Counted from the stretch's first letter, positions 3 through 21,340 are shown. The stretch is 64,000 bases of DNA from an uncultured Bacteroidales bacterium (GCA_903837605.1 CAILVF010000036.1:8186-72185), one strand, 5' to 3'. Translations and numbers: made by a program. The notes: generated by a model not told the origin, from the letters alone.

Positions 3-3000
3 TTGCTGTCGGTCTGGGCTGGTTCAGTTGCAAAAGGCGATCTTTCGTACCATGAGATTAACACTTCGGATGACGAGATCGGCAAACTGAATTCGAGTTT
101 TCGTTCAGTGGTTGATTCTTTCCGCGAGATCTCCGCCGTTTCAGCTTCCATGGCGGTAGGTGATTTTGAAAAGAAGGTCGCGGTGAGAGGGCCCGATGAC
201 CTCCTGGGCAGGTCGGTAAACGAGATGCTTGATAGTTTCAAGGCAGTGATCGGGCAGGCTACAAAGATTTCGCAGGGGGATTATAACGGGGAGATCAGTC
301 CCAGGAGCGATAAAGACAGCCTGGGAAAGGCTCTTCAGGTCATGACCGGGACCTTGCGTGAGAATTCAATCACGATGGGACAGCAGGACTGGCTGAAATC
401 AGGTATGGCTGAACTCAGCATGAAACTCAGCGGCGACAAATCCATCCATGATGTAACCCATGAACTGATCAAGTTTCTTGTCGGTTACCTTGACGGACAG
501 CTTGGCTTGTTTTACCTGGCGGATGAGCAGGATGAACTGGTTCTTACAGCCACTTATGCATTCCACGATCGTAAAGGTAATTTCAGCAGGCTGAAGATGG
601 GTGAAGGGCTCGTTGGACAAGCAGCCCTGGAAAAAGAGATCATCCTGTTCAGGGATGTGCAGGAGAATGCTGCCAGTCTCAATTTTGGAGTGGATGAGAA
701 GATCCCTCCCCACTTTATTATTGCCCCCCTGGTGTTTGAAAATAAGATTATAGGCGTAGTGCAGGTAGGTAAACTTGAACCGTTCACTCCTCTGCAGAAA
801 AAATTTGTCGAACAACTTCTTGAGCCTGTAGCGATATCGCTCAATACATCTACAGCCAGGGTGAAGGTAAAGCAGCTCCTCGACCAGACCCAGCAGCAGG
901 CCGAGCGTTTGCAGGTGCAGCAGGAAGAACTTCGTCAGACAAATGAAGAACTTGAAGAACAGACCAAGGCACTCAGGAGTTCCGAAGAAGCCCTTCAGGC
1001 CCAGCAGGAGGAATTAAGGGTGATCAACGAAGAGCTCCAGGAACGAACCAAAACGCTGGAACAGCAAAGAGATGACATCCGCATTAAAAACACAGAACTC
1101 ACCAAAGCACGGAATGAGATAGAAGAAAAGGCCAAGGATCTTGAATTTGCGAGCAAATACAAATCGGAATTCCTGGCGAATATGTCACATGAGCTCCGCA
1201 CTCCGCTCAACAGCATCATTGTCCTTTCTCAGTTGTTATCTGAAAACAAGAGGCAAAACCTTACCGACAAACAGATCGAGTATGCCGATACCATCAACAG
1301 CTCGGGCAGCGATCTGCTGGACCTGATCAATGAGATCCTTGACCTCAGCAAGATAGAGGCCGGCCGTATTGAGCTCCATCCCGAGACTATCGACCTGAAA
1401 GAGATATTGAACCAGATGGATATGTTTTTTAAACCCATGGTCGAAAAGAAAGGCCTCGGCTTCAACCTGCATATCGATGGGAAGGTGCCTTCAAATATCT
1501 TCGTGGATAACCAGAGGCTTCAGCAGATATTAAAGAACCTTCTTTCCAATGCGCTGAAGTTTACCGAGAAGGGATCCATTGCGCTGGAAGTAAGGAGACC
1601 GGCCGATGCGCTTGAACTAAGCGGTACGTCGCTGAAAATGGAATCCTCCCTGCTGTTCACTGTAACGGATACAGGGATAGGGATACCGAGGGATAAACTG
1701 AATATTATTTTCGAAGCCTTCCAGCAGGCCGACGGTACCACCAGCAGGCGTTTCGGTGGCACAGGACTGGGGCTCACAATTTCACGTTCTTTCGCACAGG
1801 TTATGGGAGGAGACATCCGCCTTATAAGCGAAGAAGGAAAAGGCTCTGTTTTCAGCCTTCTGCTCCCTGAGAAATATGAAGAAATCATTTCAAAGCAGGC
1901 ACACCAGAAACAAATCCAAACGCCTCCTGTTTCAATTCCTGCAGAACCAAAACACCGTCAGCCGAGGGCTTTAGCCAATGAGAACCCCCAGCATGACCAC
2001 AGGGATAACCTGCAAAAAGGGGATAAGATTTTACTGATCATCGAAGACGACCCGGCTTTTTCGAAAATCCTTTTCGACCTGGCTGAAGAGAAAGGCTATA
2101 AATGCCTGGTAGCGCAGGACGGGGAGAGTGGACTATATCTGGCCGACCTGCATGTGCCCAGCGCTATTGTGCTGGATATAGGTCTTCCGGGAATAGACGG
2201 ATGGGAGGTAATGGACAGGCTCCACAAGGATGCAAAAACAAGGCATATCCCAGTACACTTTATTTCGGCTATGGATAAGTCGAAGGAAGCCTTGCAGATG
2301 GGCGCTGTGGGATACCTGACTAAACCGGTCAGCATTGATAAACTCAGGGATGCCTTCGTGAGGATCGAAGATGTCATCTCCAAACCCATGAAAAAATTGC
2401 TGGTAGTCGATGACGATCCCGCAACTCAAATGAGCATTGTGGAACTTATAGGTAACGGAGATGTAACCACAACATCGGTTGGAGGAGGCGCCGAAGCTTA
2501 TCAGCTGCTCGAGAGAGAGAATTTCGATTGCCTGATCCTTGACCTGGGACTGAAGGATATGAGCGGATTTGAGCTGATTGAAAAAATCAGGGCAAACAAC
2601 AGGCTCGTAAACCTTCCTATCATTATTTATACCGGCAAGGACCTTTCGAGGGAGGAAGAAGACAAACTTCAAAAGTATGCCGACAGTATCATCATCAAAG
2701 GTATACGCTCGCCCGAACGCCTGCTTGCCGAGACATCGCTCTTCCTTCACAGGATAGAAGCCAATCTGCCCCAGGAAAAGCAGGATATGATCAGGATGCT
2801 ATACAGCCAGGAGGATGTTTTTCATGACCGTACAATACTGCTTGTTGATGACGATTCCCGGAATGTGTTTGCAATAACCGCAGTGCTTGAGGAGAGAGGG
2901 CTGAATGTCATCCCTGCAGGGAATGGCCGTGAAGGGATCGAAAAGCTCAGGGCCAATCCGGGGATAAACCTGGTGCTTATGGATATCATGATGCCTGAGA

Positions 3001-3194
3001 TGGACGGCTATGAAGCAATCGGGCTGATACGGAAGATGCAGAAATATGAGGACCTCCCGATCATAGCGCTTACGGCTAAGGCAATGAAGGAGGACAGGGA
3101 CCATTGTATTGAAGCAGGGGCGAATGATTACCTCGCAAAACCGGTCGACAGCCAAAAGCTGCTATCTTTGTTAAGAGTTTGGCTGTATAAGTAA
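3..3194 (+). CDS. Hybrid sensor histidine kinase (5' end outside window): three HAMP-like units - GAF - long Glx-rich coiled coil - HisKA - HATPase_c - three receiver domains
   Basis: ORF open at window edge. HAMP-like 'GDLSYHEINTSDDEIGKL','GDFEKKVAVRGPDDLLGRS','GDYNGEISPRSDKDSLGKA'. H-box 'FLANMSHELRTPLNS'. G boxes 'DTGIGIP','GGTGLGLTISR'. Receivers 'ILLIIEDD..VLDIGLPGIDG','LLVVDDD..ILDLGLKDMSG','ILLVDDD..LMDIMMPEMDG..LAKP'. Confidence 0.92.
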   Translation: MLSVWAGSVAKGDLSYHEINTSDDEIGKLNSSFRSVVDSFREISAVSASMAVGDFEKKVAVRGPDDLLGRSVNEMLDSFKAVIGQATKISQGDYNGEISPRSDKDSLGKALQVMTGTLRENSITMGQQDWLKSGMAELSMKLSGDKSIHDVTHELIKFLVGYLDGQLGLFYLADEQDELVLTATYAFHDRKGNFSRLKMGEGLVGQAALEKEIILFRDVQENAASLNFGVDEKIPPHFIIAPLVFENKIIGVVQVGKLEPFTPLQKKFVEQLLEPVAISLNTSTARVKVKQLLDQTQQQAERLQVQQEELRQTNEELEEQTKALRSSEEALQAQQEELRVINEELQERTKTLEQQRDDIRIKNTELTKARNEIEEKAKDLEFASKYKSEFLANMSHELRTPLNSIIVLSQLLSENKRQNLTDKQIEYADTINSSGSDLLDLINEILDLSKIEAGRIELHPETIDLKEILNQMDMFFKPMVEKKGLGFNLHIDGKVPSNIFVDNQRLQQILKNLLSNALKFTEKGSIALEVRRPADALELSGTSLKMESSLLFTVTDTGIGIPRDKLNIIFEAFQQADGTTSRRFGGTGLGLTISRSFAQVMGGDIRLISEEGKGSVFSLLLPEKYEEIISKQAHQKQIQTPPVSIPAEPKHRQPRALANENPQHDHRDNLQKGDKILLIIEDDPAFSKILFDLAEEKGYKCLVAQDGESGLYLADLHVPSAIVLDIGLPGIDGWEVMDRLHKDAKTRHIPVHFISAMDKSKEALQMGAVGYLTKPVSIDKLRDAFVRIEDVISKPMKKLLVVDDDPATQMSIVELIGNGDVTTTSVGGGAEAYQLLERENFDCLILDLGLKDMSGFELIEKIRANNRLVNLPIIIYTGKDLSREEEDKLQKYADSIIIKGIRSPERLLAETSLFLHRIEANLPQEKQDMIRMLYSQEDVFHDRTILLVDDDSRNVFAITAVLEERGLNVIPAGNGREGIEKLRANPGINLVLMDIMMPEMDGYEAIGLIRKMQKYEDLPIIALTAKAMKEDRDHCIEAGANDYLAKPVDSQKLLSLLRVWLYK

Positions 3195-3197
3195 GCT

Positions 3198-4043
3198 ATG
3201 AAGAAGTCGCAGGAAGAACAGCTGGAAAACCAGGATATCGAGATCAGGCTACTGATCCAGGCGATCTATGACAAGTACGGCTATGACTTCCGCAACTATT
3301 CCCAGGCTCATATCAAACGCAGGATGCTCAACCGTTTCCATCTTTCAGGCATGAGCTCCATTTCCCAGATGATCCATGAATCCCTGGTCAATCATAAATT
3401 CGTGGACCAGCTGCTGATGGACCTTTCCATCAACGTGACGGAGATGTTCAGGGATCCCTCGTTTTACAAGGCGGTGCGTGAACATGTCGTCCCTGTGCTG
3501 AAGACCTATCCTTTTATCAAGATCTGGCATGCCGGCTGTTCCAGCGGCGAGGAAGTGTATTCCATGGCCATTCTGCTGAAGGAAGAAGGTTTATACAACA
3601 GGACCCAGATCTATGCAACCGATTTCAACCCTGTCATCATCAAACAGGCGAAAGAAGGGATCTATCCTATAAACAGGATGAAGGACTTCACCCTGAACTA
3701 CCAGAGGGCGGGAGGAAAGGCTTCCTTTTCTGATTACTATACTGCGAATTACGAATCGGCCAAACTGCTGGATTCTTTCAAGAAAAACATTGTGTTTGCA
3801 ACACATAACCTGGTCACCGATTCGGTATTTGCCGAGGTCCATATGGTGGTTTGCCGCAACGTGCTCATTTATTTCGACCGCCAGCTGCAGGATAAGGTGA
3901 TCGGACTGTTCGCCGATTCCCTTACAGGAGGAGGGGTGTTATGCCTTGGATCGAAAGAAAACCTGCAGTTTTCTGGATATTACGATAACTTTGAGGGACT
4001 TGTGACCGGTGAGAGGATTTATATTAAAAAGTATAAGGTATGA
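3198..4043 (+). CDS. cheR: CheR-type protein-glutamate O-methyltransferase
   Basis: 281 aa. Has an N-terminal helical CheR_N-like region and the SAM-binding segment 'IKIWHAGCSSGEEVYSMAILL'. Also 'EMFRDPSFY' and 'CRNVLIYFD', typical of CheR. Starts 3 nt after the upstream kinase stop. Confidence 0.9.
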   Translation: MKKSQEEQLENQDIEIRLLIQAIYDKYGYDFRNYSQAHIKRRMLNRFHLSGMSSISQMIHESLVNHKFVDQLLMDLSINVTEMFRDPSFYKAVREHVVPVLKTYPFIKIWHAGCSSGEEVYSMAILLKEEGLYNRTQIYATDFNPVIIKQAKEGIYPINRMKDFTLNYQRAGGKASFSDYYTANYESAKLLDSFKKNIVFATHNLVTDSVFAEVHMVVCRNVLIYFDRQLQDKVIGLFADSLTGGGVLCLGSKENLQFSGYYDNFEGLVTGERIYIKKYKV

Positions 4044-4609
4044 CACCTGCCAGGAAATATAATGCGGTTGTTGTGGGGTCTTCGGCAGGAGGTTTGAATG
4101 CCCTGAAAACCTTGTTGCGGAACCTGAACAGGGATTTTAAATTTCCTGTGATCATTGTGCAGCATATAAGCCCTGATTCGGAAAATTACCTCATCCATAT
4201 TCTCAACGACCTGAAACGCCTTAAGGTTAAGGAAGCTGACGAAAAGGAACAGCCCCAGCCGGGCTATGCCTATGTGGCCCCGCCGAATTACCATCTCCTG
4301 GTTGAGCCCGACCAGACTTTCACCCTTACAATCGACGAAAGGGTGAATTATGCCAGGCCATCGATAGATGTGTTATTCGAAACGGCAGCTGAAGCCTACA
4401 GGGAACACCTCATCGGGATTATCCTGACCGGGGCGAATAATGACGGCAGCCTCGGGCTTAAACGGATCAAGGAGATGGGCGGACTGGCTATCGTTCAGGA
4501 CCCCGATACGGCCGAAGTGGACTCCATGCCCAAAGCAGCCATCCAGGCCTGCGCCGTGGATTACATTCTGCCGCTTGAGGAAATTTCAGCACTTTTGAAT
4601 AGTTTGTAA
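4040..4609 (+). CDS. cheB: CheB-type protein-glutamate methylesterase/glutamine deamidase, catalytic domain only (no receiver domain)
   Basis: 189 aa. Ser/His/Asp contexts 'VVVGSSAGGLNAL','IIVQHISP','LTGANNDGSLG'. ATGA start/stop overlap with cheR at 4040-4043. Confidence 0.87.
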   Translation: MTPARKYNAVVVGSSAGGLNALKTLLRNLNRDFKFPVIIVQHISPDSENYLIHILNDLKRLKVKEADEKEQPQPGYAYVAPPNYHLLVEPDQTFTLTIDERVNYARPSIDVLFETAAEAYREHLIGIILTGANNDGSLGLKRIKEMGGLAIVQDPDTAEVDSMPKAAIQACAVDYILPLEEISALLNSL

Positions 4610-4634
4610 CCGGATTGCCTTAATTATTGTGTTT

Positions 4635-6227
4635 ATGAGCCCCAAACCTAGGATACTGATAGTGGATGACAATGTAAGCAACATCATTGTCATTGAAGAA
4701 TTGCTTTCCGATCTGGATGTTGAACTTGTAAGAGCTAAATCGGGCCTGGAGGCTATCGAAAAAACAAAGCAGCTGGAATTCGCCCTCATCCTTATGGATG
4801 TGCAGATGCCGGGAATGGACGGTTTTGAAACCGTAGAGATCATCCGCCAGGATAAAAAAAATATCCTGCTCCCGATAATTTATATCACGGCAATCTATAA
4901 CGAAAATTATTACAGGACCAAGGGCATTAAGACAGGCGCTGTGGATTTTATTGCCAAACCCATTATCCCCGACCTGTTTATAGGGAAGGTCACTTTGTTT
5001 GTCAATCTGTACAAGCAACGTATTGTCCTTGAACAGGAAGTGATTAAGCGGAAAGAAGCTGAAGAGGAAATGAAAGTTGCCCGCGACCAGGCAAGGGAAG
5101 CGGCACATGCAAAGCAGCTGTTCCTTTCGACGATGAGCCACGAAATACGAACCCCTTTGAATGCCATTGTCAATACGGCTAAACTGTTGAAAGAGGAAAA
5201 CCCAAGGGAGGACCAGATAGAAGATCTCGAGATCCTTGAGTTCTCGGCCGAAAACCTCCTGCACCTGATCAACGATATACTCGACTTCTCGAAAATCGAT
5301 GCAGGCAAGATAGAGTTCGAGGCGATTGAATTCGAGATGAGAAAACTCATGAACGGGATCCACCAGAGTTTTGACTACCAGGCCACCCAGAAAGAAATTT
5401 CACTTGAGTTTATCCTTTCGCCGGATGTCCCGGATGTGATCATTGGCGATTCAGCACGCTTATCACAGATACTGATCAACCTGGTTGGCAATGCCATAAA
5501 ATTTACAGATAAGGGAAAAGTCATCGTGGAAGCCTCTTTGCTTGGAATCAGGGATAATACCGTTGATATTGTGATAAGGGTATCCGATACAGGGATAGGT
5601 ATTCCCGCTGATAAGCTGCAATTCGTGTTCGAAAGCTTTACCCAGGCCTCTTCGTCCACTACCCGCAAATACGGCGGCACCGGGCTCGGGCTGGCAATAA
5701 CCAAGAAGCTGGTTGAAATGCAGGGAGGAAAAATCGAAGTGAAAAGCAATTTAGGCCAGGGGAGCATCTTCTCGGTGACTATGCCTTTCATGCGCAGCGA
5801 GAAGACCCATCTCGACGAGGATATGCTGATGAAGGCAAGTTTCCAGAGCCTGGCAGGGTTAAGGGTTATGGTTGTTGAAGACAACCTCGTGAACCAGAAG
5901 ATCGTCTCTAAGTTTTTAATGAAGTGGGATGTGAATGTGGATGTGGCAGAGAACGGGAAAATAGCGGTTGAAAAGGCAAGGCGTAACACGTATGACCTGA
6001 TTTTAATGGACCTTCATATGCCCGAGATGAACGGGTATGATGCCACTTTCGAGATCCGGAAAATGGAAAATAATCCGAACAAAGACCTGCCGATTATCGC
6101 GCTGACAGCTTCAGCGTTTATTGAAGACCGCGAAAAGATCTATACTTACGGGATGAGCGGGTATATCATCAAGCCGTTCAATCCTTCGGAGCTGTACTGG
6201 AAGATAGCGCCTTTCATAAGGAAGTGA
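4635..6227 (+). CDS. Hybrid histidine kinase, REC - coiled coil - HisKA - HATPase_c - REC
   Basis: N-terminal receiver 'ILIVDDN..LILMDVQMPGMDG..AKP'. H-box 'FLSTMSHEIRTPLNAI'. 'DTGIGIP','GGTGLGLAITK'. C-terminal receiver 'VMVVEDN..LILMDLHMPEMNG..IKP'. ATG at 4635 preferred over GTG at 4629. Confidence 0.9.
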   Translation: MSPKPRILIVDDNVSNIIVIEELLSDLDVELVRAKSGLEAIEKTKQLEFALILMDVQMPGMDGFETVEIIRQDKKNILLPIIYITAIYNENYYRTKGIKTGAVDFIAKPIIPDLFIGKVTLFVNLYKQRIVLEQEVIKRKEAEEEMKVARDQAREAAHAKQLFLSTMSHEIRTPLNAIVNTAKLLKEENPREDQIEDLEILEFSAENLLHLINDILDFSKIDAGKIEFEAIEFEMRKLMNGIHQSFDYQATQKEISLEFILSPDVPDVIIGDSARLSQILINLVGNAIKFTDKGKVIVEASLLGIRDNTVDIVIRVSDTGIGIPADKLQFVFESFTQASSSTTRKYGGTGLGLAITKKLVEMQGGKIEVKSNLGQGSIFSVTMPFMRSEKTHLDEDMLMKASFQSLAGLRVMVVEDNLVNQKIVSKFLMKWDVNVDVAENGKIAVEKARRNTYDLILMDLHMPEMNGYDATFEIRKMENNPNKDLPIIALTASAFIEDREKIYTYGMSGYIIKPFNPSELYWKIAPFIRK

Positions 6228-8002: not shown

Positions 8003-9007
8003 TTATTTGTTCAGGAATTTTTGAGTTCTGTTTGCAGCATTTTGTCTGATATTGTAATAGTAAAAAGGATAATCAAAGCTATGGTAAACACCTTTTGGAA
8101 ACCCACTGAGTGAATCTAATATGGCTATTCTGGATTCATCGGCAGTTGAGCAAACCAATACCCCCTTTGTGATATCTACTCGGGCATCAGCATATTGTGA
8201 TATTTTCACCCATACTCCTGCCTTATTTGGAAAAAGCGATCCCAGGCCCTGTGAAGTGTCTGCTAAAGTTTCGCTTCTCGTCCAGGTGATAGGATTTATC
8301 ACAAGGCCAGTATCACCATATATTACAGGATTCACTCCGGTAAAACCATTTGCTTCGGTGTTATATGAAATAATCACTCCTGTATCATCAGGTCCAGTCG
8401 CAAATTTCAGGTGAGGATTAGCCTGGAGAAATGCTTTTGTAACAGGACCACCGATTACGTATGCCGCAATCATTCTGGAATAAACCTGCGGATTAGCTTT
8501 CAGGTATCCGGCTAAAATATTACAAACAATATTTGCTCCTTGTGAATGTCCGGCTAATATAAACGGGCGTCCCTGATTGAAATGCTTTATGTAGTAGTCG
8601 AAGGCCGCAGTAGCATCCGTTGTGGGAATTCCAGCGATCACATTTAATCGGTTATCAGGCGATGAGTTGTCTTGTCGGTAATAGGGTGAGTAAACATTAG
8701 CTGCGGTGTCAAAAGCAGTGGCTTGCCGTGCAAAGGCTGATGCTGCACCTGCCATCATAAGGGAGTCGTCAATTGCGCAAATCATTGAAGTTGAATTATT
8801 CTTTGTCCAGGACGTTGTTGGATATAAGTAAAAGACATCTGCTTTGTAAAGAGTCGCAGGCAATGACAGCCAATGAGCAGCTTGTGAATAATCAACCGAG
8901 GTTGAAACAGTGATTGTACTGCTACTTTTCTTGCAACCGTTGATAATAATTACTCCAAATCCCATTATGATTAAAGGGTAAATTAAGGTGCTGATTTTTA
9001 TTTTCAT
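8003..9007 (-). CDS. Secreted/lipoprotein alpha/beta-hydrolase (lipase/esterase-like, GxSxG 'GHSQG')
   Basis: 334 aa. Signal peptide plus Cys ('IINGCKK'). Nucleophile elbow 'LAGHSQGANIV'. Family assignment (DUF3089-like lipase) is from memory. Confidence 0.7.
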   Translation of the reverse strand: MKIKISTLIYPLIIMGFGVIIINGCKKSSSTITVSTSVDYSQAAHWLSLPATLYKADVFYLYPTTSWTKNNSTSMICAIDDSLMMAGAASAFARQATAFDTAANVYSPYYRQDNSSPDNRLNVIAGIPTTDATAAFDYYIKHFNQGRPFILAGHSQGANIVCNILAGYLKANPQVYSRMIAAYVIGGPVTKAFLQANPHLKFATGPDDTGVIISYNTEANGFTGVNPVIYGDTGLVINPITWTRSETLADTSQGLGSLFPNKAGVWVKISQYADARVDITKGVLVCSTADESRIAILDSLSGFPKGVYHSFDYPFYYYNIRQNAANRTQKFLNK

Positions 9008-9994: not shown

Positions 9995-12925
9995 ATGAGA
10001 ACAAAAGCCATACTGATAACAGCAATTGCATTGATCGTTTTCAATGCCTTCTCCCAGAAACAGGGACAGGCCCGGATAGACTCCCTTCTAACACAATTGA
10101 ACAGGTCAAAGGAAGATACGAATAAAGTTAAGCTGCTGAACGAACTGAGCCTTACAGTCAGAGAAATCAATGCCGACGAAGGGATCAGTTACGCAATACA
10201 AGCTTTGTCGCTTGCCCAAAAACTTCACTGGCAGCCAGGTGTTGCTGATGCAAATGTTGTTCTTGGCATGAGTTACTTTTATGGCAAAACCAATTATACA
10301 GGTGCGATAGACTGTTATTTGAAATCATTGAAAATCAGTGAAGAAATCCATGATAATACCAGGATCGCAAAAAGCCTGAACCGCCTTGGATTATTTTACT
10401 CCAGGTTGTCGGATTATAAGAAAGCTTTGGACTATTACCAAAGGGCATTAAACATCGCAAAGGAAGAAGGGAATAAGAATGGCATGCAAAAGATCATGTT
10501 TAATATTGGCGAGATCTATCAAAAGCAATCAGACTATCCTAAAGCATTGGAAATATTCAACCAGGCACTGAAAATAAACCAGTCTATTGGAAATAAACCG
10601 GGATGCAGCAGGGCCTTAAATGCCATCGGTTTTATTTACCGGTTAATGAAAGATTTTAAAAGAGCCCATCAGTATTGTGAAGAATCCATTAAAATGTATG
10701 AAGCAGCAGGAGATCAAATATCACTGGCTGCAGAGTTGGAAGACATAGGAGATATGTACCGGCAGCAAACCGAGTACCTTAAGGCGCTGGAATATCTCTT
10801 TAAAGCGCTGAGAATTCAGAAAGAGTTAAATGAAAGAAGAAGTATTGCTTATAATTTCGGGGTGATCGCTTACACTTATTTCAAGATCGCAACCGACAGC
10901 AATACAACCGTATTGAATAAGCTTTTTTCCGGGAATAAAAAGGCCGCTGTGAAAATATGCATGACATATGCCGACAGTTCAATAGCAATCCAGAAGGAGC
11001 TGGGAGATCTTTATTACCTGCAGGATACCTATATTTCGATGAGCCGTGCCCTGGAGCAGCTCGGCGATTACAAGGGAGCTCTTGAAAACCTGAAACAATA
11101 TAACATCATCAGTGATTCGATTTTAAATGCCGACAGGGAGAAAAAGCTCACTCAGCTCTCGATGAAGTATGAATTCGATAAAAAGCAGGCAACCGACAGT
11201 TTGAGGCATGCAGTTGAAAACAACCTGAACCAGCTCCGCCTGCAGAAGCAAAAAACATTTACCTGGGCAGGTTTTATCGGCATGGCCCTGGTCGCATTTT
11301 TACTGTTCTTCGTATTTAAAAATTACAACAACCAGCGTAAATCCAATCTGCGGTTGCAAGCCGCTCAAAAGGAGATCCTGGAACAAAAAGAACGTGCCGA
11401 ACAAAGCGAAAGGTTCAAGCAGCAGTTCCTTGCCAACATGAGTCATGAGATCCGCACTCCAATGAATGCCGTCATGGGAATGACGAACCTGTTAATCGAT
11501 AAAAATCCCCGGGCCGACCAGCAGCATTACCTGGAAGGGATAAAAAAATCCTCCGATATCCTGCTGCACATCATTAACGACATCCTGGATCTGTCTAAAA
11601 TTGAGTCCGGAAAAATGGAACTTGAAAAAACAGACTTTTCCCTGCATCAAACTATTGAACAGGTAATAGAAACCATGCGGCATAAAGCCGATGAAAAAGG
11701 ATTGCATTTGCTGAGCGATATCAGTGACAGCATTCCCGATGTGCTTATTGGTGATCCTGTACGCTTGAACCAGATCATTCTGAACCTTGCGGGAAATGCC
11801 ATTAAATTCACTGAAAAAGGAAGTGTTGAGATCAAGGTTGAATTAGCCTCCGGGGACCCATCTTCACTGCTTAATCTCAGGTTTTCAGTCATCGATACCG
11901 GCATCGGGATCGCGGAAGATAAACTTGAAACGGTCTTTGAAAGTTTTAAACAAGCCAATTCATCGGATACCAGGAAGTATGGCGGTACAGTACTGGGGTT
12001 GAGCATCAGCAGGCAGCTGGTGGAATTGTATGGAGGGGATATAAAAATAGAGAGTGAAGAAGGAGCAGGCACAACGTTCTCATTTATACTCAATTTTGAA
12101 GAAGGTTCCGCAGTAAGATTGCATAAACAACTGAATGCTCTTGCACTTATTGACGGGCACATCCTGGACGGATTGAAAATTCTGATTGCCGATGATAACG
12201 AGTATAACAGGATAGTTGCCGAAGATACGCTGAGATCAAAAGCCAATGTTGCAATAGAAACCGCATCCAACGGGAATGAAGCAATTGAGTTACTTAAAGA
12301 GACAGACTTTGACGTGATATTAATGGATGTTCAGATGCCCGAAATGAATGGTTTTGAAGCAACCGGGTTCATCCGTGCGAACTTTTCTTCACCCAAAAAA
12401 GATGTTCCGATCATTGCTTTAACGGCAAGTGTACTGAGAACCGACCTCGACAAATGCAGGCAGGCTGGTATGAACTCGTATATTCCCAAGCCGTTTAATG
12501 CATCGCAACTTATCCGCGGCATTGCCGAGGTATTGGATATTAAAATAAGAACATTGGAGAATCCCGCAGAAGCAAAGGAAAAAGCTTCATCTGACCAGGG
12601 GAGGGTAACGGATATGTCATACCTCAAAACATTCTGCGAAGGTGACGGGAAGAAAATGCAAAAGTATATCGGCATGTTTTTACAATCAGCCCCGGTTCTC
12701 TTAGAAAAAGTAAACACGGCCATTGCTGCTTCTGATTTTGAGGAGGTAGCGAATCAGCTGCATGGTTTTAAGACTAAATTTATCATGATGGGTATGAAGA
12801 ACACAGGCATGCTGTCACTCCTCCTGGAACAGAAATACAGAAGTGAATCAAGACCAGGCACATCGCATGCAGAGATTAAAATCCTGCTTGCTGATGTTGA
12901 ACGCGCGATTATTGAATTAACATAA
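9995..12925 (+). CDS. TPR-repeat sensor hybrid histidine kinase (signal peptide - ~7 TPR - TM - HisKA - HATPase_c - REC - HPt)
   Basis: Repeated 'Y.KAL.Y..(Q/K)AL.I' TPR units. TM 'FTWAGFIGMALVAFLLFFVF'. H-box 'FLANMSHEIRTPMNAV'. 'DTGIGIA'. Receiver 'ILIADDN..VILMDVQMPEMNG..PKP'. C-terminal HPt-like 'QLHGFKTKF'. Confidence 0.88.
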   Translation: MRTKAILITAIALIVFNAFSQKQGQARIDSLLTQLNRSKEDTNKVKLLNELSLTVREINADEGISYAIQALSLAQKLHWQPGVADANVVLGMSYFYGKTNYTGAIDCYLKSLKISEEIHDNTRIAKSLNRLGLFYSRLSDYKKALDYYQRALNIAKEEGNKNGMQKIMFNIGEIYQKQSDYPKALEIFNQALKINQSIGNKPGCSRALNAIGFIYRLMKDFKRAHQYCEESIKMYEAAGDQISLAAELEDIGDMYRQQTEYLKALEYLFKALRIQKELNERRSIAYNFGVIAYTYFKIATDSNTTVLNKLFSGNKKAAVKICMTYADSSIAIQKELGDLYYLQDTYISMSRALEQLGDYKGALENLKQYNIISDSILNADREKKLTQLSMKYEFDKKQATDSLRHAVENNLNQLRLQKQKTFTWAGFIGMALVAFLLFFVFKNYNNQRKSNLRLQAAQKEILEQKERAEQSERFKQQFLANMSHEIRTPMNAVMGMTNLLIDKNPRADQQHYLEGIKKSSDILLHIINDILDLSKIESGKMELEKTDFSLHQTIEQVIETMRHKADEKGLHLLSDISDSIPDVLIGDPVRLNQIILNLAGNAIKFTEKGSVEIKVELASGDPSSLLNLRFSVIDTGIGIAEDKLETVFESFKQANSSDTRKYGGTVLGLSISRQLVELYGGDIKIESEEGAGTTFSFILNFEEGSAVRLHKQLNALALIDGHILDGLKILIADDNEYNRIVAEDTLRSKANVAIETASNGNEAIELLKETDFDVILMDVQMPEMNGFEATGFIRANFSSPKKDVPIIALTASVLRTDLDKCRQAGMNSYIPKPFNASQLIRGIAEVLDIKIRTLENPAEAKEKASSDQGRVTDMSYLKTFCEGDGKKMQKYIGMFLQSAPVLLEKVNTAIAASDFEEVANQLHGFKTKFIMMGMKNTGMLSLLLEQKYRSESRPGTSHAEIKILLADVERAIIELT

Positions 12926-12973
12926 AAGCTGGCGATCTTCCGATATTCATTATTTTTACAAAAAATATAAGCT

Positions 12974-13360
12974 ATGGACCTGGATATGCCAAAGAAAATT
13001 TTCATCGTGGATGATGATACAATGCTCACTGAAGCGCTTAAGGATTATCTCACACGCAATACCCTGAATGATATCTATATTTTCAATACTGGCGAAGAAT
13101 GCCTGAATCATCTCTCCGAAAACCCTGATGTCATCATCCTGGATTATTACCTTAACAGCGTTCAGAAAGATGCTGCTAACGGGATGGAGATACTGCAGGT
13201 GATAAAAAAACATTACCCGGGTATGCATGTCATCATGCTATCCAGCCAGGAGCATTATGCAATCGCGCTTCAAACTATTCAGAAAGGCGCCGAGCAATAT
13301 GTAGTAAAGGATGAGACTGCTTTCGAAAAGATCGCTTCGCTGATCAGGGAACTCAATTAA
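12974..13360 (+). CDS. Stand-alone response-regulator receiver (CheY-like)
   Basis: 128 aa. 'KIFIVDDD','VIILDYYL' and 'VVKD' give the D-D-K receiver pattern. No output domain. Confidence 0.82.
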   Translation: MDLDMPKKIFIVDDDTMLTEALKDYLTRNTLNDIYIFNTGEECLNHLSENPDVIILDYYLNSVQKDAANGMEILQVIKKHYPGMHVIMLSSQEHYAIALQTIQKGAEQYVVKDETAFEKIASLIRELN

Positions 13361-13817: not shown

Positions 13818-16112
13818 ATGAACAACTACCTGAAATTCCTGGTTTTATCTGTGATCATTTTTACCTGCGGATGCGGCCACAAAAAAGATGCACAGATCAC
13901 AAACCTTCTGATGCTGAAGGGAGGGAAGACTTTTGCAGTTCCCACAGGAACAGCCGCCGACCAGTTCGTGCTGAAGAAATTTCCTGATGCAAAAATAGAA
14001 TATTACAACAGTGTGCTTGATTGTTCCATGGCTGTGAAGGATGGGAAAGCCGATGCGGCAGTCTATGACCTTCCTGTTCTGAAAAATATTGCTGCAAAAA
14101 ATGGGGGCCTCATCGTTTTAGATGAACTGCTGTTTGATGATCAGTACGGATTTGCGGTCCGCCCCGACGACAAAGCCCTGAAATCTGCAATGGACGAAGT
14201 CCTTGCCCGGTTAAAATCAGACGGCACATACCGGGAGATGCAGAAACGCTGGTTCCCCGATAAGGGGAACCCCGGCCCCATGCCTGAAATCAAATTCACA
14301 AATGAAAAAGGCGTGCTCAGATTTGGAACTGCAGCTGTAACAGAACCTATGTCCTATGTCGACAGCAGCAAGCAGGTTGTCGGATTCGATATCGAATATG
14401 CCTCCTACATTGCTAAGAAATCAGGGAAAGTCCTGGAGATAGTCAACATGGAATTCGGGGCCATGATCCCTGCCCTGATTTCCGGCAAGGTCGATATGAT
14501 CGGCGCCGGACTGTCTATCACGGAAGAAAGGGCAAAGAAAGTCCTTTTTTCTCAAAGCTACTATCCAAGCGGTATTGCTGCGGTAGTGAAAGATAACCGA
14601 GAAAAGAAAAAAGCAACAACCGAATCCAAAATGAAAACCCTCGCCGATATAAAAAACAGGCGGATAGGGGTGTTGCTTGGAAGTATCCATGACGCTTATG
14701 CAACGAAACAGTTCCCCAATGCAACGATCTTTCAGTATCCGAATCTCTCCGATCTGCTGTTTGGCCTGAACTCTGATAAAGTGGATGTGGCATTCACTGA
14801 CCAGACATCGGTTAAGGATATCTTCAGTAAAAATCCCGGGCTTGGGATCCTGTCCAAAAACATATTTACGGTTAACATCGCAGCAGGATTTGACAAGGAT
14901 AATGATCAGCTGAGAAAACAGTTCAACGCTTTTCTTAAGGAGATCAGGTCGAACGGTGTTTACAAGGACCTGGTCGACCGCTGGATGGATAAAGGGCTGG
15001 AAGAAATGCCCGGGATTAAAGGAACGAACATCAATGGCCAGCTCAAAGTCGGCGTTGTAAGTGACCTTGGAATGCCTTCCACAATAATGAAAAACGGCCG
15101 TTTGATTGGTTTTGACATTGAACTGGCCCAGCGGTTTGCAGCATATATCCACAAGGAATTCGTCCCGGTCGACCTGCAGTTCGGGAGCCTGCTTGCATCG
15201 GTCTCGACCAATAAGATTGATATCATCATGAGTTCTTTGATGGTAACCGATGAACGCAAAAAACAGATTGATTTTTCCGACCCGTATTATGAATCAGGCG
15301 TCAGCATCATTGCAAAGAAAAATAACATTGATAGTAAAACCCTTTCGGGATCAGGAACTCCTGATGAATATCCTGAAGATGAAAATGGTAATGGTAATGT
15401 CTCTTTCTTCAAAGCCGTTTCAAACAGTTTCTACAACAACATCATCCTTGAAAAAAGGTATTTGAGTATCCTTGACGGGTTAAAAGTCACTATGCTCATT
15501 TCAATCCTTGCTGCAATACTGGGAACGCTGATCGGCTCGCTGGTATGCTACATGAGGATGTCTAAAAGCAGGTTCCTTTCACGATCAGCAAGTGTGTATA
15601 TCTCCATATTGCGCGGGACACCTGTATTGGTTCTGCTGATGATCATATATTATGTTGTTTTTGCTTCGGTGAATATCAATCCGGTTGTCGTGGCCGTAAT
15701 TGCATTCTCCCTGAATTTCGGCGCTTATGTATCGGAGATGTTCAGGACTTCTATAGAAAGCATAGATAAAGGGCAGAAGGAGGCTGCAATTGCAGGAGGC
15801 TTCTCTAAAATCCAGACATTCACTTACATTATCCTCCCCCAGGCTTTGCGCCATATCCTTCCGGTCTATAAAGGGGAATTTATTTCGCTCCTCAAAATGA
15901 CCTCCATTGTAGGGTATATAGCAGTCCAGGATCTTACCAAGGCGAGCGATATTATCCGCAGCCGAACGTTTGACGCTTTTTTCCCATTGATCATGGTTGC
16001 GGTATTGTATTTATGCATTGCATGGTTGTTTACCTGGGCCCTTGGTTTGATCGAGATTTCGGTGGATCCTAAAAGAAGACGCATAAGGAGAACAGAGGAG
16101 GCAAAGCCATGA
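13818..16112 (+). CDS. Amino-acid ABC importer, substrate-binding domains fused to the permease (GlnP/HisM-type TMD); non-canonical SBD half-domain order
   Basis: 764 aa. Signal/lipobox 'IIFTCGC'. SBP_bac_3-like segments cover aa ~27-146 (C-terminal two-thirds only), ~165-390 (complete) and ~408-503 (N-terminal part only). Gly/Glu/Asn linker. The permease carries the EAA-type loop '[28 protein letters not shown]'. Confidence 0.85.
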
Positions 16113-17191
16113 TCAAAGTAAGAAACCTTTCAAAGCATTTTGGAGAACTGGTGGTCCTGAAAGATATCAGTACGGATATCAGTAAAGGAGAGGTGATCTC
16201 TGTGATAGGGCCCTCAGGAACGGGAAAAAGCACCTTCCTCCGCTGCCTCAACCTGCTGGAGGTCCCTACCGGCGGAAGCATTTTTATTGATGATGTTCCC
16301 CTGCTTGATAAACATACCGACGTGCCAAAACTAAGGCAGAAAATGGGTATGGTTTTTCAGTCGTTTAATTTGTATTCACATCTGACGGTGTTGGAAAACC
16401 TGACCATAGGCCCGGTCAAACTTTTGGGAATGAAAAAGGTGGAAGCCGATGAAAAAGCTCATGAGCTTCTTAAGATAGTGGGCCTTGCCGAAAAAGCATA
16501 CAGCTTTCCCGATGAACTCTCAGGCGGACAAAAACAAAGAGTGGCTATTGCCCGATGCATGGCCATGGAACCTGAAATCCTGCTCTTTGATGAACCTACT
16601 TCGGCCCTTGACCCGACCATGGTCAGCGAGGTGCTGGCTGTGATACGCCGACTGTCAAGGGAAGGGATGACCATGATCATCGTAACACATGAAATGGAAT
16701 TTGCCAGGAACACATCGAGCCGGGTGTTTTATATGGACGAAGGACTGATTTATGAAGAAGGAACACCTCAGCAGATCTTTGATAATCCGCAGAAAGAAAA
16801 AACAAAAGCATTCATCAACCGGATACGCAGCCTGAATTGCCATATTACAAGCAGCGATTATGACTTGTATGGCTTGCAGGGCGAAATGGAAGTATTTTGC
16901 GAAAAACATATGCTTACCAGGAGGGTCACAGGATATGTATTGCATATTGCTGAAGAGTTGCTGGTACTTCAAAAGGACCTCTCGGATGTCAGCCTCAGCC
17001 TTTCTTATTCTGAAAAAGAAGGAGATGTGGAATTGAAATGCGATAGTGCCGGGCTTCCTTTTAATCCTCTTAAGGAAGATGCCCTCGAAGATGATATCGG
17101 GCTGAAACTGATCAGGGGAAGATGCAGGAGCGTTGATTATTTCTATGAAGGAGGGAGGAATATTCTCCTTCTCAGGATCAAAGGCGAATAA
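16109..17191 (+). CDS. Amino-acid ABC transporter ATP-binding protein (GlnQ-like) with ~120-aa C-terminal extra domain
   Basis: Walker A 'GPSGTGKST'. Q-loop 'MVFQSFNL'. Signature 'LSGGQKQR'. Walker B '[12 protein letters not shown]'. H-loop 'IVTHEM'. ATGA overlap with the permease gene. Residues 241-360 lie beyond the canonical domain. Confidence 0.9.
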
Positions 17192-17342
17192 ATGCCTCCG
17201 GAAGCCTGATCAGGGTATCCTGAAATTGCGATTTTCCCGCTTTCTATTTAACAAAATTTGAAAATTAATAAATATTTAACTTAGAATGTTAGGTAATTGA
17301 TAAGGGTTTTTTATATTCGCATCCTGTTTAATATTCATTTTT

Positions 17343-20105
17343 ATGTTGATGAAGATCAGAGGTAATAGTATGACGCTTCCGGGAATAATTTTATTCCTTG
17401 TTATAGTGATCTTAGGAATAATATATGTGCATTATACCTGGAAAAGGTTTGAAAACGACAGAGCGGAAAAGGTAATGGAAATCGCACAGTCCATTGAAGC
17501 TACCTTGCCAAAAGCTGACCTGAAGATGCTTGAAGCCAAACCCGGAGATATAGCTAAACCCCAGTATACGTTGATCAAAAACATCCTGAAAGCAATAATC
17601 AGGATCGATCCCAATGTCAGGTTTGCCTACCTGTATAATGAACAGAAAGGGAAAATATATTTCTATGCTGATTCTGAAGCCGAAAATTCCCCTGATTATT
17701 CTCCTCCCGGCCAGGAATATACTGAAGCCATGCCGGAATATCTCTTGCCGTTGACAAACGGAAAGGCACTGATCGCCGGTCCTGTTTCAGACCGCTGGGG
17801 GGTATGGGTTTCTGTACTGGTTCCAATTAAAGATGGTGCAAACAGCAGTCCGTATGCGGTTTTTGGAATGGATTATAATGCAAAATCCTGGAATTCATTT
17901 TTGTTATTTGAAGTATTTCAATCCTGTGTTTTAGTGATTTTACTTCTCCTTGCATTTTTCTTTTTGCTGATAATCCAGGCTAAGAACAAATCACTAAAAA
18001 ATGATATTATAGAGCGGAAGCTGGCGGGTGAGGCGCTTTTGCAAAGCCAGGGGCGTACCCGTCTTCAGCGTAATGCAATTGCAAGGATCGCCCTTGACGA
18101 GGTTATTGCTTTCGGTTCGCTTACCCAGTCATTGAATCGGCTTACCGAAGAAGTTGCATCGGCGATCAGGGTTTCGCGCGCAAGTGTCTGGCTCTATACG
18201 GAAGATAAGGCTGCATTGCAATGCAGCTCCCTGTATGAAGCCGAAGCAAATCGCCACAGCTCGGGAATACTTTTAAAGAGCGCTGATTATCCGAGGTATT
18301 TTGAAGCTATTAAAAGGGAAAGCAGGATCAATGCCGACGAAGCACAAACTGACCTGCGAACCAGTGAATTTGCCGAGGGGTATCTTAAACCACTCGGAAT
18401 AAGTTCAATGCTGGATGCAGGAATTACCATTGAAGGTAAGCTAAAGGGAGTTGTGTGTTTTGAACATACCGGGGAGAAGCGCATCTGGCATCCTGATGAG
18501 GAATCTTTTGCAAGCACTGTGGCATCTATCGTTGCTCAGATACTTTCCAATAATGTACGCAAACTTGCAGAAGATGCACTGAGGGTCAGCGAAGAAAAAT
18601 ACCGCAATATTTTCGAAAATGTCCAGGATGTTTTTTACCAAACCGATCTTTCAGGGATTGTGCGGGAAATAAGCCCGTCCATCAAATATTTTTCACAGTT
18701 TAACAGGGAGGAAATTCTAGGATTCTCAGTCGACAAATTGTATAAAAGTCCGGAGGACAGGGATAATCTGATCAATGAAATTTTGAAAAATGGCGAACTC
18801 AGGGATTATGAACTCACCCTGAGGACAAAATCAGGCGTAACCAGGAGTGCTTCAATTAACGCAAGATTAATTTATGATGCCCAGGGTAATCCCCACCATA
18901 TCGACGGAGCCATCAGGGATATCACTGAAAGAAAACAGGCGGAAGCTGACCTGATCAAAGCTAAAGAACGTGCGGAAGAAAGCGATCGGCTTAAATCGGC
19001 GTTTCTTGCCAATATGAGCCACGAGATACGCACCCCCATGAACGGGATCCTTGGCTTTGCCGGCTTGTTGAAGGAACCCGGCCTGACCGGGGAAGATCAG
19101 CAGGAATATATAAGGATCATTGAGAAAAGCGGGGCCCGCATGCTTAATATTATCAATGACATCGTTGATATTTCAAAAATAGAATCGGGCTTGATGGAAG
19201 TTGATATTAAAGACTCTGACATCAATCATCAGATGGAGTACATCTATAATTTCTTCAGACCTGAATTTGACAGGAAGAAAATACAGTTTTCATTAAAAAA
19301 CGGTCTGCCTTCAAATGAAGCCACCATCAAAACAGACCGCGAAAAGATCTATGCCATTCTTACCAACCTGGTTAAAAATGCCAATAAATATACCAACCAT
19401 GGTTCAATAGAATTCGGGTACAATAAAAAAGATTCATTTCTTGAATTCTATGTTAAAGATACAGGCATCGGGATCCCGCTTGACAGGCAGGAAGCCATTT
19501 TCGAGCGGTTTATCCAGGCTGATATTTTCGACAAGCATGCATTGCAGGGAGCCGGGCTGGGATTGTCAATAACAAAAGCTTATGTGGAAATGCTTGGCGG
19601 TAAAATCTGGGTTGAAAGCAAAGAAGGGGAAGGTTCAACTTTCTTTTTCACTCTTCCGTATAATGCAGGGGTGCAAAAACCAACCATCGCTCCTGCTAAT
19701 GAGCATATCGTGCAAAGTACAGGGCGAATTGAAAATCTGAAGGTTTTAATTGCAGAAGACGATGAAATATCGGTAATGTTCCTGACCAAATCATTGAAGG
19801 GATTTGTTAAAGAAATTCTTATTGTAAAGACAGGTATGGAAGCTGTGGAATTTTGCAGCAATCATCCTGATACAGATCTCGTATTAATGGATATCGGGAT
19901 GCCCGAAATGAACGGATATGAAGCTACAATGAGAATACGTCAGTTCAACAAGGAAGTGGTCATTATCGCTCAAACTGCATTTGGTCTTTTAGGCGACAGG
20001 GAGAAAGCCCTGGATGCCGGATGCGATGATTATATTTCAAAGCCGATAGAAGGAGATTCATTAATAAGGCTGATACACAAATATTTCAATAATCAAACAG
20101 ATTAA
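17343..20105 (+). CDS. Sensor hybrid histidine kinase (TM - extracytoplasmic domain - TM - GAF - PAS - HisKA - HATPase_c - REC)
   Basis: Two TM segments ('LPGIILFLVIVILGIIYV','VLVILLLLAFFFLLII'). PAS 'YRNIFENVQDVFYQTD'. H-box 'FLANMSHEIRTPMNGILGF'. 'DTGIGIP','GAGLGLSITK'. Receiver 'VLIAEDD..LVLMDIGMPEMNG..SKP'. Confidence 0.9.
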   Translation: MLMKIRGNSMTLPGIILFLVIVILGIIYVHYTWKRFENDRAEKVMEIAQSIEATLPKADLKMLEAKPGDIAKPQYTLIKNILKAIIRIDPNVRFAYLYNEQKGKIYFYADSEAENSPDYSPPGQEYTEAMPEYLLPLTNGKALIAGPVSDRWGVWVSVLVPIKDGANSSPYAVFGMDYNAKSWNSFLLFEVFQSCVLVILLLLAFFFLLIIQAKNKSLKNDIIERKLAGEALLQSQGRTRLQRNAIARIALDEVIAFGSLTQSLNRLTEEVASAIRVSRASVWLYTEDKAALQCSSLYEAEANRHSSGILLKSADYPRYFEAIKRESRINADEAQTDLRTSEFAEGYLKPLGISSMLDAGITIEGKLKGVVCFEHTGEKRIWHPDEESFASTVASIVAQILSNNVRKLAEDALRVSEEKYRNIFENVQDVFYQTDLSGIVREISPSIKYFSQFNREEILGFSVDKLYKSPEDRDNLINEILKNGELRDYELTLRTKSGVTRSASINARLIYDAQGNPHHIDGAIRDITERKQAEADLIKAKERAEESDRLKSAFLANMSHEIRTPMNGILGFAGLLKEPGLTGEDQQEYIRIIEKSGARMLNIINDIVDISKIESGLMEVDIKDSDINHQMEYIYNFFRPEFDRKKIQFSLKNGLPSNEATIKTDREKIYAILTNLVKNANKYTNHGSIEFGYNKKDSFLEFYVKDTGIGIPLDRQEAIFERFIQADIFDKHALQGAGLGLSITKAYVEMLGGKIWVESKEGEGSTFFFTLPYNAGVQKPTIAPANEHIVQSTGRIENLKVLIAEDDEISVMFLTKSLKGFVKEILIVKTGMEAVEFCSNHPDTDLVLMDIGMPEMNGYEATMRIRQFNKEVVIIAQTAFGLLGDREKALDAGCDDYISKPIEGDSLIRLIHKYFNNQTD

Positions 20106-20187
20106 TCCTGAAATATATCTTGTTGTTTGACAAACATCTCTTTAACTTTGAAGATGGGTTTTTGGGGTTTCCGAAAAATTGTTCAAT

Positions 20188-21330: not shown

Positions 21331-21340
21331 TTCCTCCGAT

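Follow-up and report, generated by a model that had tools for sequence, protein, structure and literature searches.

The operon described here occupies positions 3 to 6227 of a 64,000-nucleotide stretch of DNA (hereafter the window) from an uncultured Bacteroidales bacterium (GCA_903837605.1, CAILVF010000036.1:8186-72185). It comprises four genes on the plus strand, which encode the C-terminal 1063 residues of a hybrid sensor kinase resembling RsbK and CfcA (HK1, 3..3194), a CheR-type protein-glutamate methyltransferase dependent on S-adenosylmethionine (SAM) and 281 residues long (3198..4043), a stand-alone CheB methylesterase/deamidase catalytic domain of 189 residues (4040..4609), and a second hybrid kinase of 530 residues (HK2, 4635..6227). 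An initial annotation of the window had described four co-directional, tightly packed genes and had proposed that CheR and CheB act on the coil of a kinase and not on a methyl-accepting chemotaxis protein (MCP). The packing can be read directly from the sequence: HK1 and CheR are separated by three nucleotides (TAA-GCT-ATG), the stop codon of CheR and the start codon of CheB share ATGA (overlap 4040-4043), and HK2 begins either at ATG 4635, after a gap of 25 nucleotides, or at GTG 4629, after a gap of 19 nucleotides, with the gene calls of relatives starting at the ATG. Pfam profile searches agree with the domain order given in that annotation, namely a kinase with three receivers, CheR, a catalytic-only CheB, and a REC-HisKA-HATPase-REC kinase (HK2, histidine at 5139-5141), which makes five receiver domains across the operon, three in HK1 and two in HK2. 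In NCBIfam, both kinases match only generic BarA/TorS-like hybrids, below every cut-off, and CheR and CheB fall below the chemotaxis CheR and CheB cut-offs.

HK1: The first gene had been described as a poly-HAMP hybrid kinase with three receivers. The kinase and its receivers stand as described, but the gene is cut by the window start, and the window holds 1063 of the 1434 residues found in contigs whose CheB is 98% identical to the one studied here. The window part is ~90% identical to these full-length relatives, in which the missing 371 residues form a first transmembrane helix, a periplasmic domain of ~285 residues and a second transmembrane helix. Since two hydrophobic helices flank the ~285-residue segment, the topology of HK1 is receptor-like. 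Pfam finds no CHASE3 domain at E <= 0.01 in the full-length 1434-residue relative. The HAMP region (3..407) receives a single Pfam call (aa 34-78), but it contains three D-x-[IL]-G motifs (aa 24, 66, and 105) that lie ~40 residues apart, and this spacing suggests three HAMP-like units; the term poly-HAMP is thus supported in part, by the motifs and not by the profile. The GAF domain follows (438..842, aa 146-280; Pfam GAF_2, E = 1.8e-14), and then a signalling helix that runs as a heptad coil from the GAF domain to the H-box (876..1160, aa 292-386), recognised from its leucine heptads, its content of glutamate and glutamine (Glx), and its alignment with the signalling helix (S-helix) of RsbK from Bacillus cereus. 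The HisKA (aa 387-454) and HATPase_c (aa 502-623) domains lie at 1161..1871, with the phospho-acceptor H396 at 1188-1190, and the three receivers (aa 675-781, 797-907, and 944-1053; Pfam Response_reg) lie at 2025..3161.

The coil of HK1: A Glx-rich heptad coil directly N-terminal to the H-box had been noted before, and the composition confirms it, as residues 296-372 contain 40% Glx compared with 14% in the whole protein, and from L303 to L380 every seventh residue is leucine. The coil carries two modules that are defined by their conservation in orthologues and by alignment with RsbK: module 1 is LQVQQEELRQTNEELEEQ (aa 303-320, 909..962), and module 2 is LQAQQEELRVINEELQER (aa 331-348, 993..1046), which aligns with AEELRTTNEQLE of RsbK. 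Both follow the pattern Q-Q-E-E-L-x-x-x-N-E-E-L-E-E-Q with leucine at heptad position d, and their Glu-Glu pairs occupy the exposed positions b and c, 7 residues apart. Residues Q306, Q307, E308, E309, N314, E315, E316, and Q320 of module 1, and Q334, Q335, E336, E337, N342, E343, and E344 of module 2, are identical in 39-41 of 41 orthologues. When HK1 is divided into 20-residue blocks, the conservation of block 301-320 is 0.88, which is exceeded only by the H-box block (0.92), and the ATP-binding boxes reach ~0.80. An exposed coil surface conserved to this degree argues against a passive linker. The predicted methyl-accepting residues in module 1 are E309 (927-929) and E316 (948-950), which align with E439 and E446 of RsbK, and the candidate sites in module 2 are E337 (1011-1013) and E344 (1032-1034). 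In the numbering of the full-length protein, these are E680/E687 and E708/E715, respectively.

HK1 is the sole open reading frame (ORF) in the window with at least two xEEL motifs within 80 residues. The coil motif is absent from HK2, from the other four kinases of the window, and from the neighbouring kinases of related loci, and the linker of HK2 has no conserved Glx pattern. A search with the coil alone against 1.84 billion representative sequences, clustered at 50% identity, gives 982 matching clusters. Of the best 150, almost every one has the layout (HAMP)n-GAF-coil-kinase-(REC)0-3 or is a fragment of it, and the named members of the family (ten representatives) come from Bdellovibrionales, Spirochaetales, Desulfobulbaceae, Myxococcales, and Bacteroidales.

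CheR and CheB: The methyltransferase has both CheR_N and CheR domains in Pfam. Compared to Escherichia coli CheR, it keeps the SAM-binding motif (AGCSSGEEVYS versus AAASTGEEPYS), the arginine of FR(D/E), and CRNV(L/M)IYFD. The CheB protein consists of the CheB_methylest domain alone (residues 10-185 of 189, that is 176 residues). Across 15 homologues its residues S15, H42, and D135 do not vary, and they align with the serine of GASTGG, the histidine of QHM, and the aspartate of GNDG in E. coli CheB. The best 120 homologues of this CheB are all single-domain proteins of ~190 residues, mostly from metagenome-assembled genomes of Bacteroidota. The catalytic residues of both proteins are intact, and both enzymes look active.

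Absence of the chemotaxis core: No MCP, CheA or CheW gene had been seen in the 64 kb, and this agrees with a phmmer search in which E. coli Tar, Tap, CheA, and CheW were compared with all 351 ORFs that the six frames of the window contain. MCP and CheW queries found no match among these ORFs, and the CheA query gave weak ATPase-type matches to ordinary kinases only (E >= 2.7e-4). The same queries detected MCPs in Clostridium, Azospirillum, and Caballeronia loci, and the sensitivity of the search is therefore adequate. The exact CheB sequence is present on two contigs of ~2 kb, and the wider context was taken from a relative with a 98% identical CheB, such as GCA_037138335.1. Upstream of HK1, such close relatives have TerC, followed by a divergently oriented glutamine synthetase and HSP20, and no che genes were found there; a set of MCP, cheA, and cheW genes at this place would have spoken against the earlier proposal. 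Downstream of the operon lies a convergent gene for MeaB GTPase.

Conserved synteny: The linkage was examined from both ends. Starting from CheB, and taking one genome per species, 330 loci were found, of which 80 were kept (up to 20 kb each) and searched uniformly for domains. These 80 come from Bacteroidales, Flavobacterium, Chitinophagales, Ignavibacteria, Calditrichia, Clostridia, Halanaerobiales, and Desulfovibrionaceae. CheR lies directly upstream of the ~190-residue CheB in 76/80 loci, some kinase is present in 69/80, a (HAMP)-GAF-kinase-REC2-3 protein with the coil in 42/80, and TerC in 33/80. CheW or CheA-specific domains occur in 0/80 loci and MCP fragments in 2/80, both from Clostridium. 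Of the 38 loci flanked by 6 kb or more on each side, 25 contain a coil kinase, 11 contain TerC without one, and the remaining 2 lack both. In Bacteroidales and Clostridia the coil kinase precedes CheR-CheB, whereas in Flavobacterium and Ignavibacteria it follows the pair. The linkage thus survives rearrangement, which argues for a functional link. A kinase of the HK2 type is also conserved beside CheR-CheB in many loci.

Starting from the kinase, a tblastn search of plasmids with the GAF-coil-kinase part returned 243 records with a query coverage of 80% or more, and 14 loci from ~13 genera were sampled. CheR adjoins the kinase in 9/14, and at least 7/14 have the order kinase, CheR, ~190-residue CheB, and a REC protein or kinase. 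The complete order was found on plasmids of Rhizorhabdus, Sphingobium, Neorhizobium, Brucella anthropi, Agrobacterium, Allorhizobium, and Cupriavidus, whereas a Deinococcus locus has CheR only. The synteny of CheR-CheB with the GAF-coil-kinase thus reaches Alpha- and Betaproteobacteria as well, with no CheA or CheW at any locus. From both ends, then, the synteny of the kinase with the enzymes is conserved, and its lack would have spoken against the earlier proposal. Loci with CheR/CheB usually have at least two coil modules in their kinase, and the examined loci that lack the enzymes have one copy or degenerate copies.

Several variations on this arrangement were seen among the related loci. 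The end of the TerC gene overlaps the start of HK1 in close relatives (L004:3793-4854), and TerC-(HK1)-CheR-CheB-(HK2) together with the convergent MeaB GTPase recurs in 33/80 loci (among L008-L087). In Bacteroidales, TerC-CheR-CheB occurs with or without HK2, and a few such loci have no kinase at all. These patterns suggest that TerC is linked to the CheR/CheB pair, which lies outside all explanations considered here. Three or four QQEELR..NEEL modules are present in a Clostridia and a Calditrichia kinase (among L048:4820-8851, L079:5433-9122, and L080:1967-9089), and one Desulfovibrionaceae locus has two tandem coil kinases upstream of CheR-CheB. Three actinobacterial loci (L090, L096, and L100) encode HAMP-HAMP-GAF-kinase-REC proteins with one QQEEL..NEELEEK copy and have no CheR/CheB within 8 kb. 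In one of them, from Streptomyces rimosus (L090), a gene for a SpoIIE-family phosphatase follows the kinase, an arrangement that resembles RsbK-RsbY and lacks the methylase.

RsbK and RsbM of B. cereus: The initial annotation knew of no defined substrate for such a CheR. RsbK is, in fact, a published non-MCP substrate of a CheR-type enzyme. It belongs to the sigma-B stress module of B. cereus, on which Chen and colleagues (2012 and 2015) and de Been and colleagues (2010 and 2011) have published. It has the layout CHASE3-HAMP-GAF-S-helix-HK-CA-REC, and the CheR-type protein RsbM methylates its signalling helix, by which sigma-B signalling is repressed. In methylated RsbK, the receiver domain contacts the S-helix/DHp region more strongly. 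RsbM is an 'orphan' without a methylesterase, and the chemotaxis CheB of B. cereus has no effect on the RsbK system, whose output runs through RsbY (REC-PP2C) and sigma-B partner switching. In all, 127 RsbK-like kinases from 10 phyla have been noted. The rsbK gene was recovered for comparison by rebuilding a 38-nucleotide stretch from the primers in the supplement of PMC4574943, which has exact matches in eight metagenome contigs. These contigs encode an 896-residue kinase with H505 and D827, as published, followed by a 285-residue CheR-type protein. Most of them also have a 380-residue REC protein on the opposite strand, and no CheB was found in any of them.

The window CheR is 50% identical to RsbM (265 aa, E = 1e-100), an orthologue by this measure, and each of the two shares ~26% identity with the E. 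coli enzyme. Between RsbK and the full-length HK1 relative, the identity is 34% over 726 residues (E = 2e-116). The S-helix of RsbK is TEELQVQSEELQTQAEELQMQAEELRTTNEQLE, with Glx pairs at 431/432, 438/439, 445/446, 452/453, and 459/460, and its Glu-Glu heptads align with the near-invariant block QQEELRQTNEELEEQ of the HK1 coil. Here RsbK TEELQVQSEELQTQAEEL is matched to HK1 ERLQVQQEELRQTNEEL, and the local alignment places RsbK E438/E439 and E445/E446 on HK1 E308/E309 and E315/E316. In the recovered RsbK, residues 439 and 446 are each the second glutamate of a heptad Glu-Glu pair, in keeping with their reported methylation.

Taken together, the synteny, the invariant Glu-Glu pairs, and the RsbK/RsbM homology support the core of the earlier proposal. 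The operon likely encodes a two-component sensor that is tuned in its sensitivity by the reversible methylation of glutamates in its own kinase, and the methylated protein is very probably HK1 rather than a chemotaxis receptor. In this model, HK1 is a transmembrane kinase made up, in this order, of a periplasmic sensor, the HAMP units, the GAF domain, the long signalling helix, the DHp/CA core, and the three receivers. The RsbM-type CheR would transfer a methyl group from SAM to the second glutamate of the pairs, which are predicted to be E309 and E316, and possibly E337 and E344. The receiver-less CheB would hydrolyse the resulting methyl esters and might deamidate neighbouring glutamines. 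By analogy with RsbK, methylation would change the packing of the helix, favour an inhibitory contact of a receiver with the DHp, and lower the output, and demethylation would re-open the kinase. HK2 may serve as a downstream or partner element of the phosphorelay. Since CheB has no receiver, any feedback would need an enzyme preference for one conformation of the helix and not CheB phosphorylation. The isolated catalytic domain of CheB is active, and adaptation can rest on the preference of the enzymes for particular receptor conformations; a receiver-less CheB is therefore compatible with feedback.

A more far-reaching form of this model is possible, although it is put forward tentatively. 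The RsbM-type CheR and the receiver-less CheB may provide true reversible adaptation, that is, a memory of the past stimulus level, without any chemotaxis machinery and with feedback through the preference of the enzymes for a helix conformation. The QQEEL/NEEL code may likewise be the self-substrate of the widespread fused CheB-CheR-kinases, and would then represent a general 'methyl-accepting kinase' code parallel to that of MCPs.

Some observations weigh against methylation of HK1. CheR/CheB are missing within 8 kb from 5/14 loci of the kinase-first sample (Azospirillum, Caballeronia, and three actinobacteria), whose kinases have one motif copy or degenerate copies, and a motif that is kept without CheR/CheB has a role independent of these enzymes. 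Conversely, 11/38 well-flanked loci are TerC-CheR-CheB with no coil kinase within 10 kb, and 7/80 loci show no kinase of any sort in the sequence available, so the enzymes may act in trans or on another target. The complete chromosome OY759717.1 is an example of TerC-CheR-CheB with no coil kinase beside it. The MCP methylation-site consensus, taken as [ASTG]2-x2-[EQ]2-x2-[ASTG]2, has 0 matches in HK1 and HK2, and it retrieves all 4 sites of Tar. The choice of the second glutamate draws on the mapping of RsbK methylation, reportedly by Chen and colleagues in 2012, to E439 and E446. Lastly, in the similar cfc cluster of Pseudomonas putida, mutants in the other cfc genes are quoted, as unpublished results, to have kept the CfcA-dependent phenotype.

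Among the competing explanations, the one that survives best assigns CheR/CheB to another protein, such as one of the five receivers, HK2, or a TerC-associated protein, with the coil conserved for other reasons. The many Bacteroidales loci that have TerC-CheR-CheB without a coil kinase, often with HK2 and sometimes free of kinases, fit this explanation, as does Salmonella CheR, which is reported (PMC8546571) to methylate the response regulator PhoP on Glu/Asp pairs. It is nevertheless unlikely. The linker of HK2 has no conserved Glx pattern, the signalling helix of a kinase is the one target that experiments have defined for this CheR subfamily, and the Glu-Glu pairs that align with it are the most conserved non-catalytic part of HK1.

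Methylation of HK1 has also to be weighed against a purely structural or signalling role of the coil between GAF/HAMP and DHp, in which case CheR/CheB would regulate the pathway by other means and the Glu-Glu pairs would serve mechanics or receiver docking. The actinobacterial, Azospirillum, and Caballeronia homologues that keep a motif copy with no CheR/CheB nearby point in this direction, together with the mismatch to the MCP consensus and the contact of the RsbK receiver with the S-helix/HK region. Yet this same S-helix, with the same Glu-Glu heptads, is the published region of RsbK methylation by RsbM, and loci with the enzymes usually show two or more coil modules, against one module or degenerate copies in the examined loci without them, which makes a solely structural coil quite improbable. 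Finally, that CheR/CheB form an orphan adaptation pair for MCPs encoded elsewhere, with an incidental place between two kinases, is very doubtful. In its favour, the catalytic motifs are complete, both proteins belong to the CheR and CheB Pfam families, and the MCP search covers no more than the window and related loci. Against it, the enzymes stay linked to kinases in many phyla, none of the 80 loci has CheA/CheW, CheR is far nearer to RsbM than to the E. coli enzyme, CheB is missing the receiver through which it would be coupled to CheA, and flagellar chemotaxis systems are rare in Bacteroidota, the source phylum.

Methylation-based adaptation is textbook knowledge for chemoreceptors and almost unstudied in ordinary two-component kinases. 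Biochemistry was found for one such case, RsbK/RsbM, which has no demethylase, whereas the present locus and several hundred relatives have a full writer/eraser pair beside the kinase. MCP-like adaptation of a histidine kinase becomes directly testable through the near-invariant candidate sites, and the coil can be used as a sequence signature for finding such kinases. The labels 'chemotaxis protein CheR' and 'chemotaxis protein CheB' are misleading in Bacteroidota and on many plasmids.

Neighbourhood of the operon: A DUF3089 protein with a lipoprotein-like N-terminus is encoded on the minus strand (8003-9007) between meaB and the next kinase, and occupies the same place in relative L006. That kinase is a TPR-HisKA-HATPase-REC-Hpt hybrid of 976 residues, followed by a single-domain receiver (12971-13357; both genes within 9995-13357). 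Its Hpt domain is the only one seen near the operon and could join the same phosphorelay. The 976-residue kinase is conserved downstream in L006, and not in L004 or L005. Dense signalling and transport genes follow at 13818-23626, including a protein of 764 residues in which SBP_bac_3 domains of the amino-acid-binding type are joined to an ABC permease domain, an ABC ATPase after it, a GAF-PAS-kinase-REC protein (17343-20105), a FIST-domain protein (20179-21330), and a PAS-PAS-kinase-REC protein (21341-23626). The G+C content is 0.39-0.44 at ~8000-30000 of the window compared with 0.47-0.50 on either side. After meaB, L004 and L005 differ from the window and have small hypothetical genes, a DDE transposase, and an HTH_17 protein, whereas L006 is like the window. 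It looks like a variable region begins just downstream of meaB.

Fused CheB-CheR-(PAS)-kinases: The initial annotation had pointed to a similar NEEL/QEEL coil in fused CheB-CheR-PAS-kinases. Such fusions occur in four Flavobacterium loci (L059:16865-20542, L063:17226-20540, L068:17123-20539, and L086:3-2720), and directly after the CheR domain they do carry a coil of this kind, NEEIVSSNEEFQTLNEELETSKEEIEATNEEL. The same loci also hold a separate CheR, CheB, and coil kinase, and further PAS kinases. The fusions resemble the present operon in this related heptad coil, NEE[LIF]xx[ST]. They differ in that all parts are in one polypeptide and not in separate genes, and in that the coil precedes PAS domains and does not lie between GAF and the H-box. 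Among the best 150 of the 982 clusters that match the HK1 coil itself, none is fused to CheB/CheR.

Canonical chemosensory systems: The operon shares with these systems the CheR and CheB families with their catalytic residues, a presumed substrate that is a dimeric helical region downstream of a transmembrane-HAMP input, and Glx pairs 7 residues apart on an exposed face. In contrast, it has no MCP signalling domain, CheA, or CheW, and its CheB has no N-terminal receiver. Moreover, the HK1 coil falls outside the MCP site consensus, and the protein presumed to be modified is the kinase itself.

Cfc system of P. putida: The cluster cfcABCDE encodes the CHASE3/GAF hybrid kinase CfcA, followed by the CheR/CheB pair CfcB/CfcC, and CfcD. 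CfcB/CfcC are reported as not involved in chemotaxis, and CfcA is required for the activation of the diguanylate cyclase CfcR. No mention of CfcA methylation was found in the P. putida cfc papers examined, later ones included. Compared by description only, the two systems share the order of a multisensor GAF hybrid kinase, CheR, CheB, and a REC-containing protein, and this four-gene order is also present on the alphaproteobacterial plasmids mentioned above (Rhizorhabdus, Sphingobium, Brucella anthropi, Agrobacterium, and others). Unlike CfcA, which is described with CHASE3, the full-length HK1 relative has no match to that domain, and the CfcR/cyclic di-GMP output has no identified counterpart in the window.

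RsbK/RsbM system: HK1 and RsbK have the same succession of membrane sensor, HAMP, GAF, signalling helix, HisKA, HATPase, and REC. In both, a co-oriented CheR-type gene lies immediately downstream of the kinase, the helices have aligned Glu-Glu pairs at heptad spacing, and the window CheR is nearer to RsbM (50%) than to chemotaxis CheR (26%, E. coli). On the other hand, the CheR gene of the window is overlapped by a receiver-less CheB, whereas no methylesterase is paired with RsbM in B. cereus. RsbK contains CHASE3 and a single receiver, whereas HK1 has three receivers and no Pfam CHASE3. The RsbK helix has five consecutive Glx heptads, and in HK1 two double modules are split by an insert. The operon neighbour is a second hybrid kinase in place of RsbY/sigma-B, and a Pfam search of the ten next proteins found no PP2C/SpoIIE, anti-sigma, or sigma-factor genes beside the operon; the RsbY/sigma-B output defines the B. 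cereus pathway and not the kinase/methylase pair. Kinase methylation as a principle is thus already in the literature with RsbK/RsbM, as is the gene arrangement with Cfc. What the present operon adds to these is a putative demethylase paired with the methyltransferase, together with a candidate site that is precisely delimited and highly conserved.

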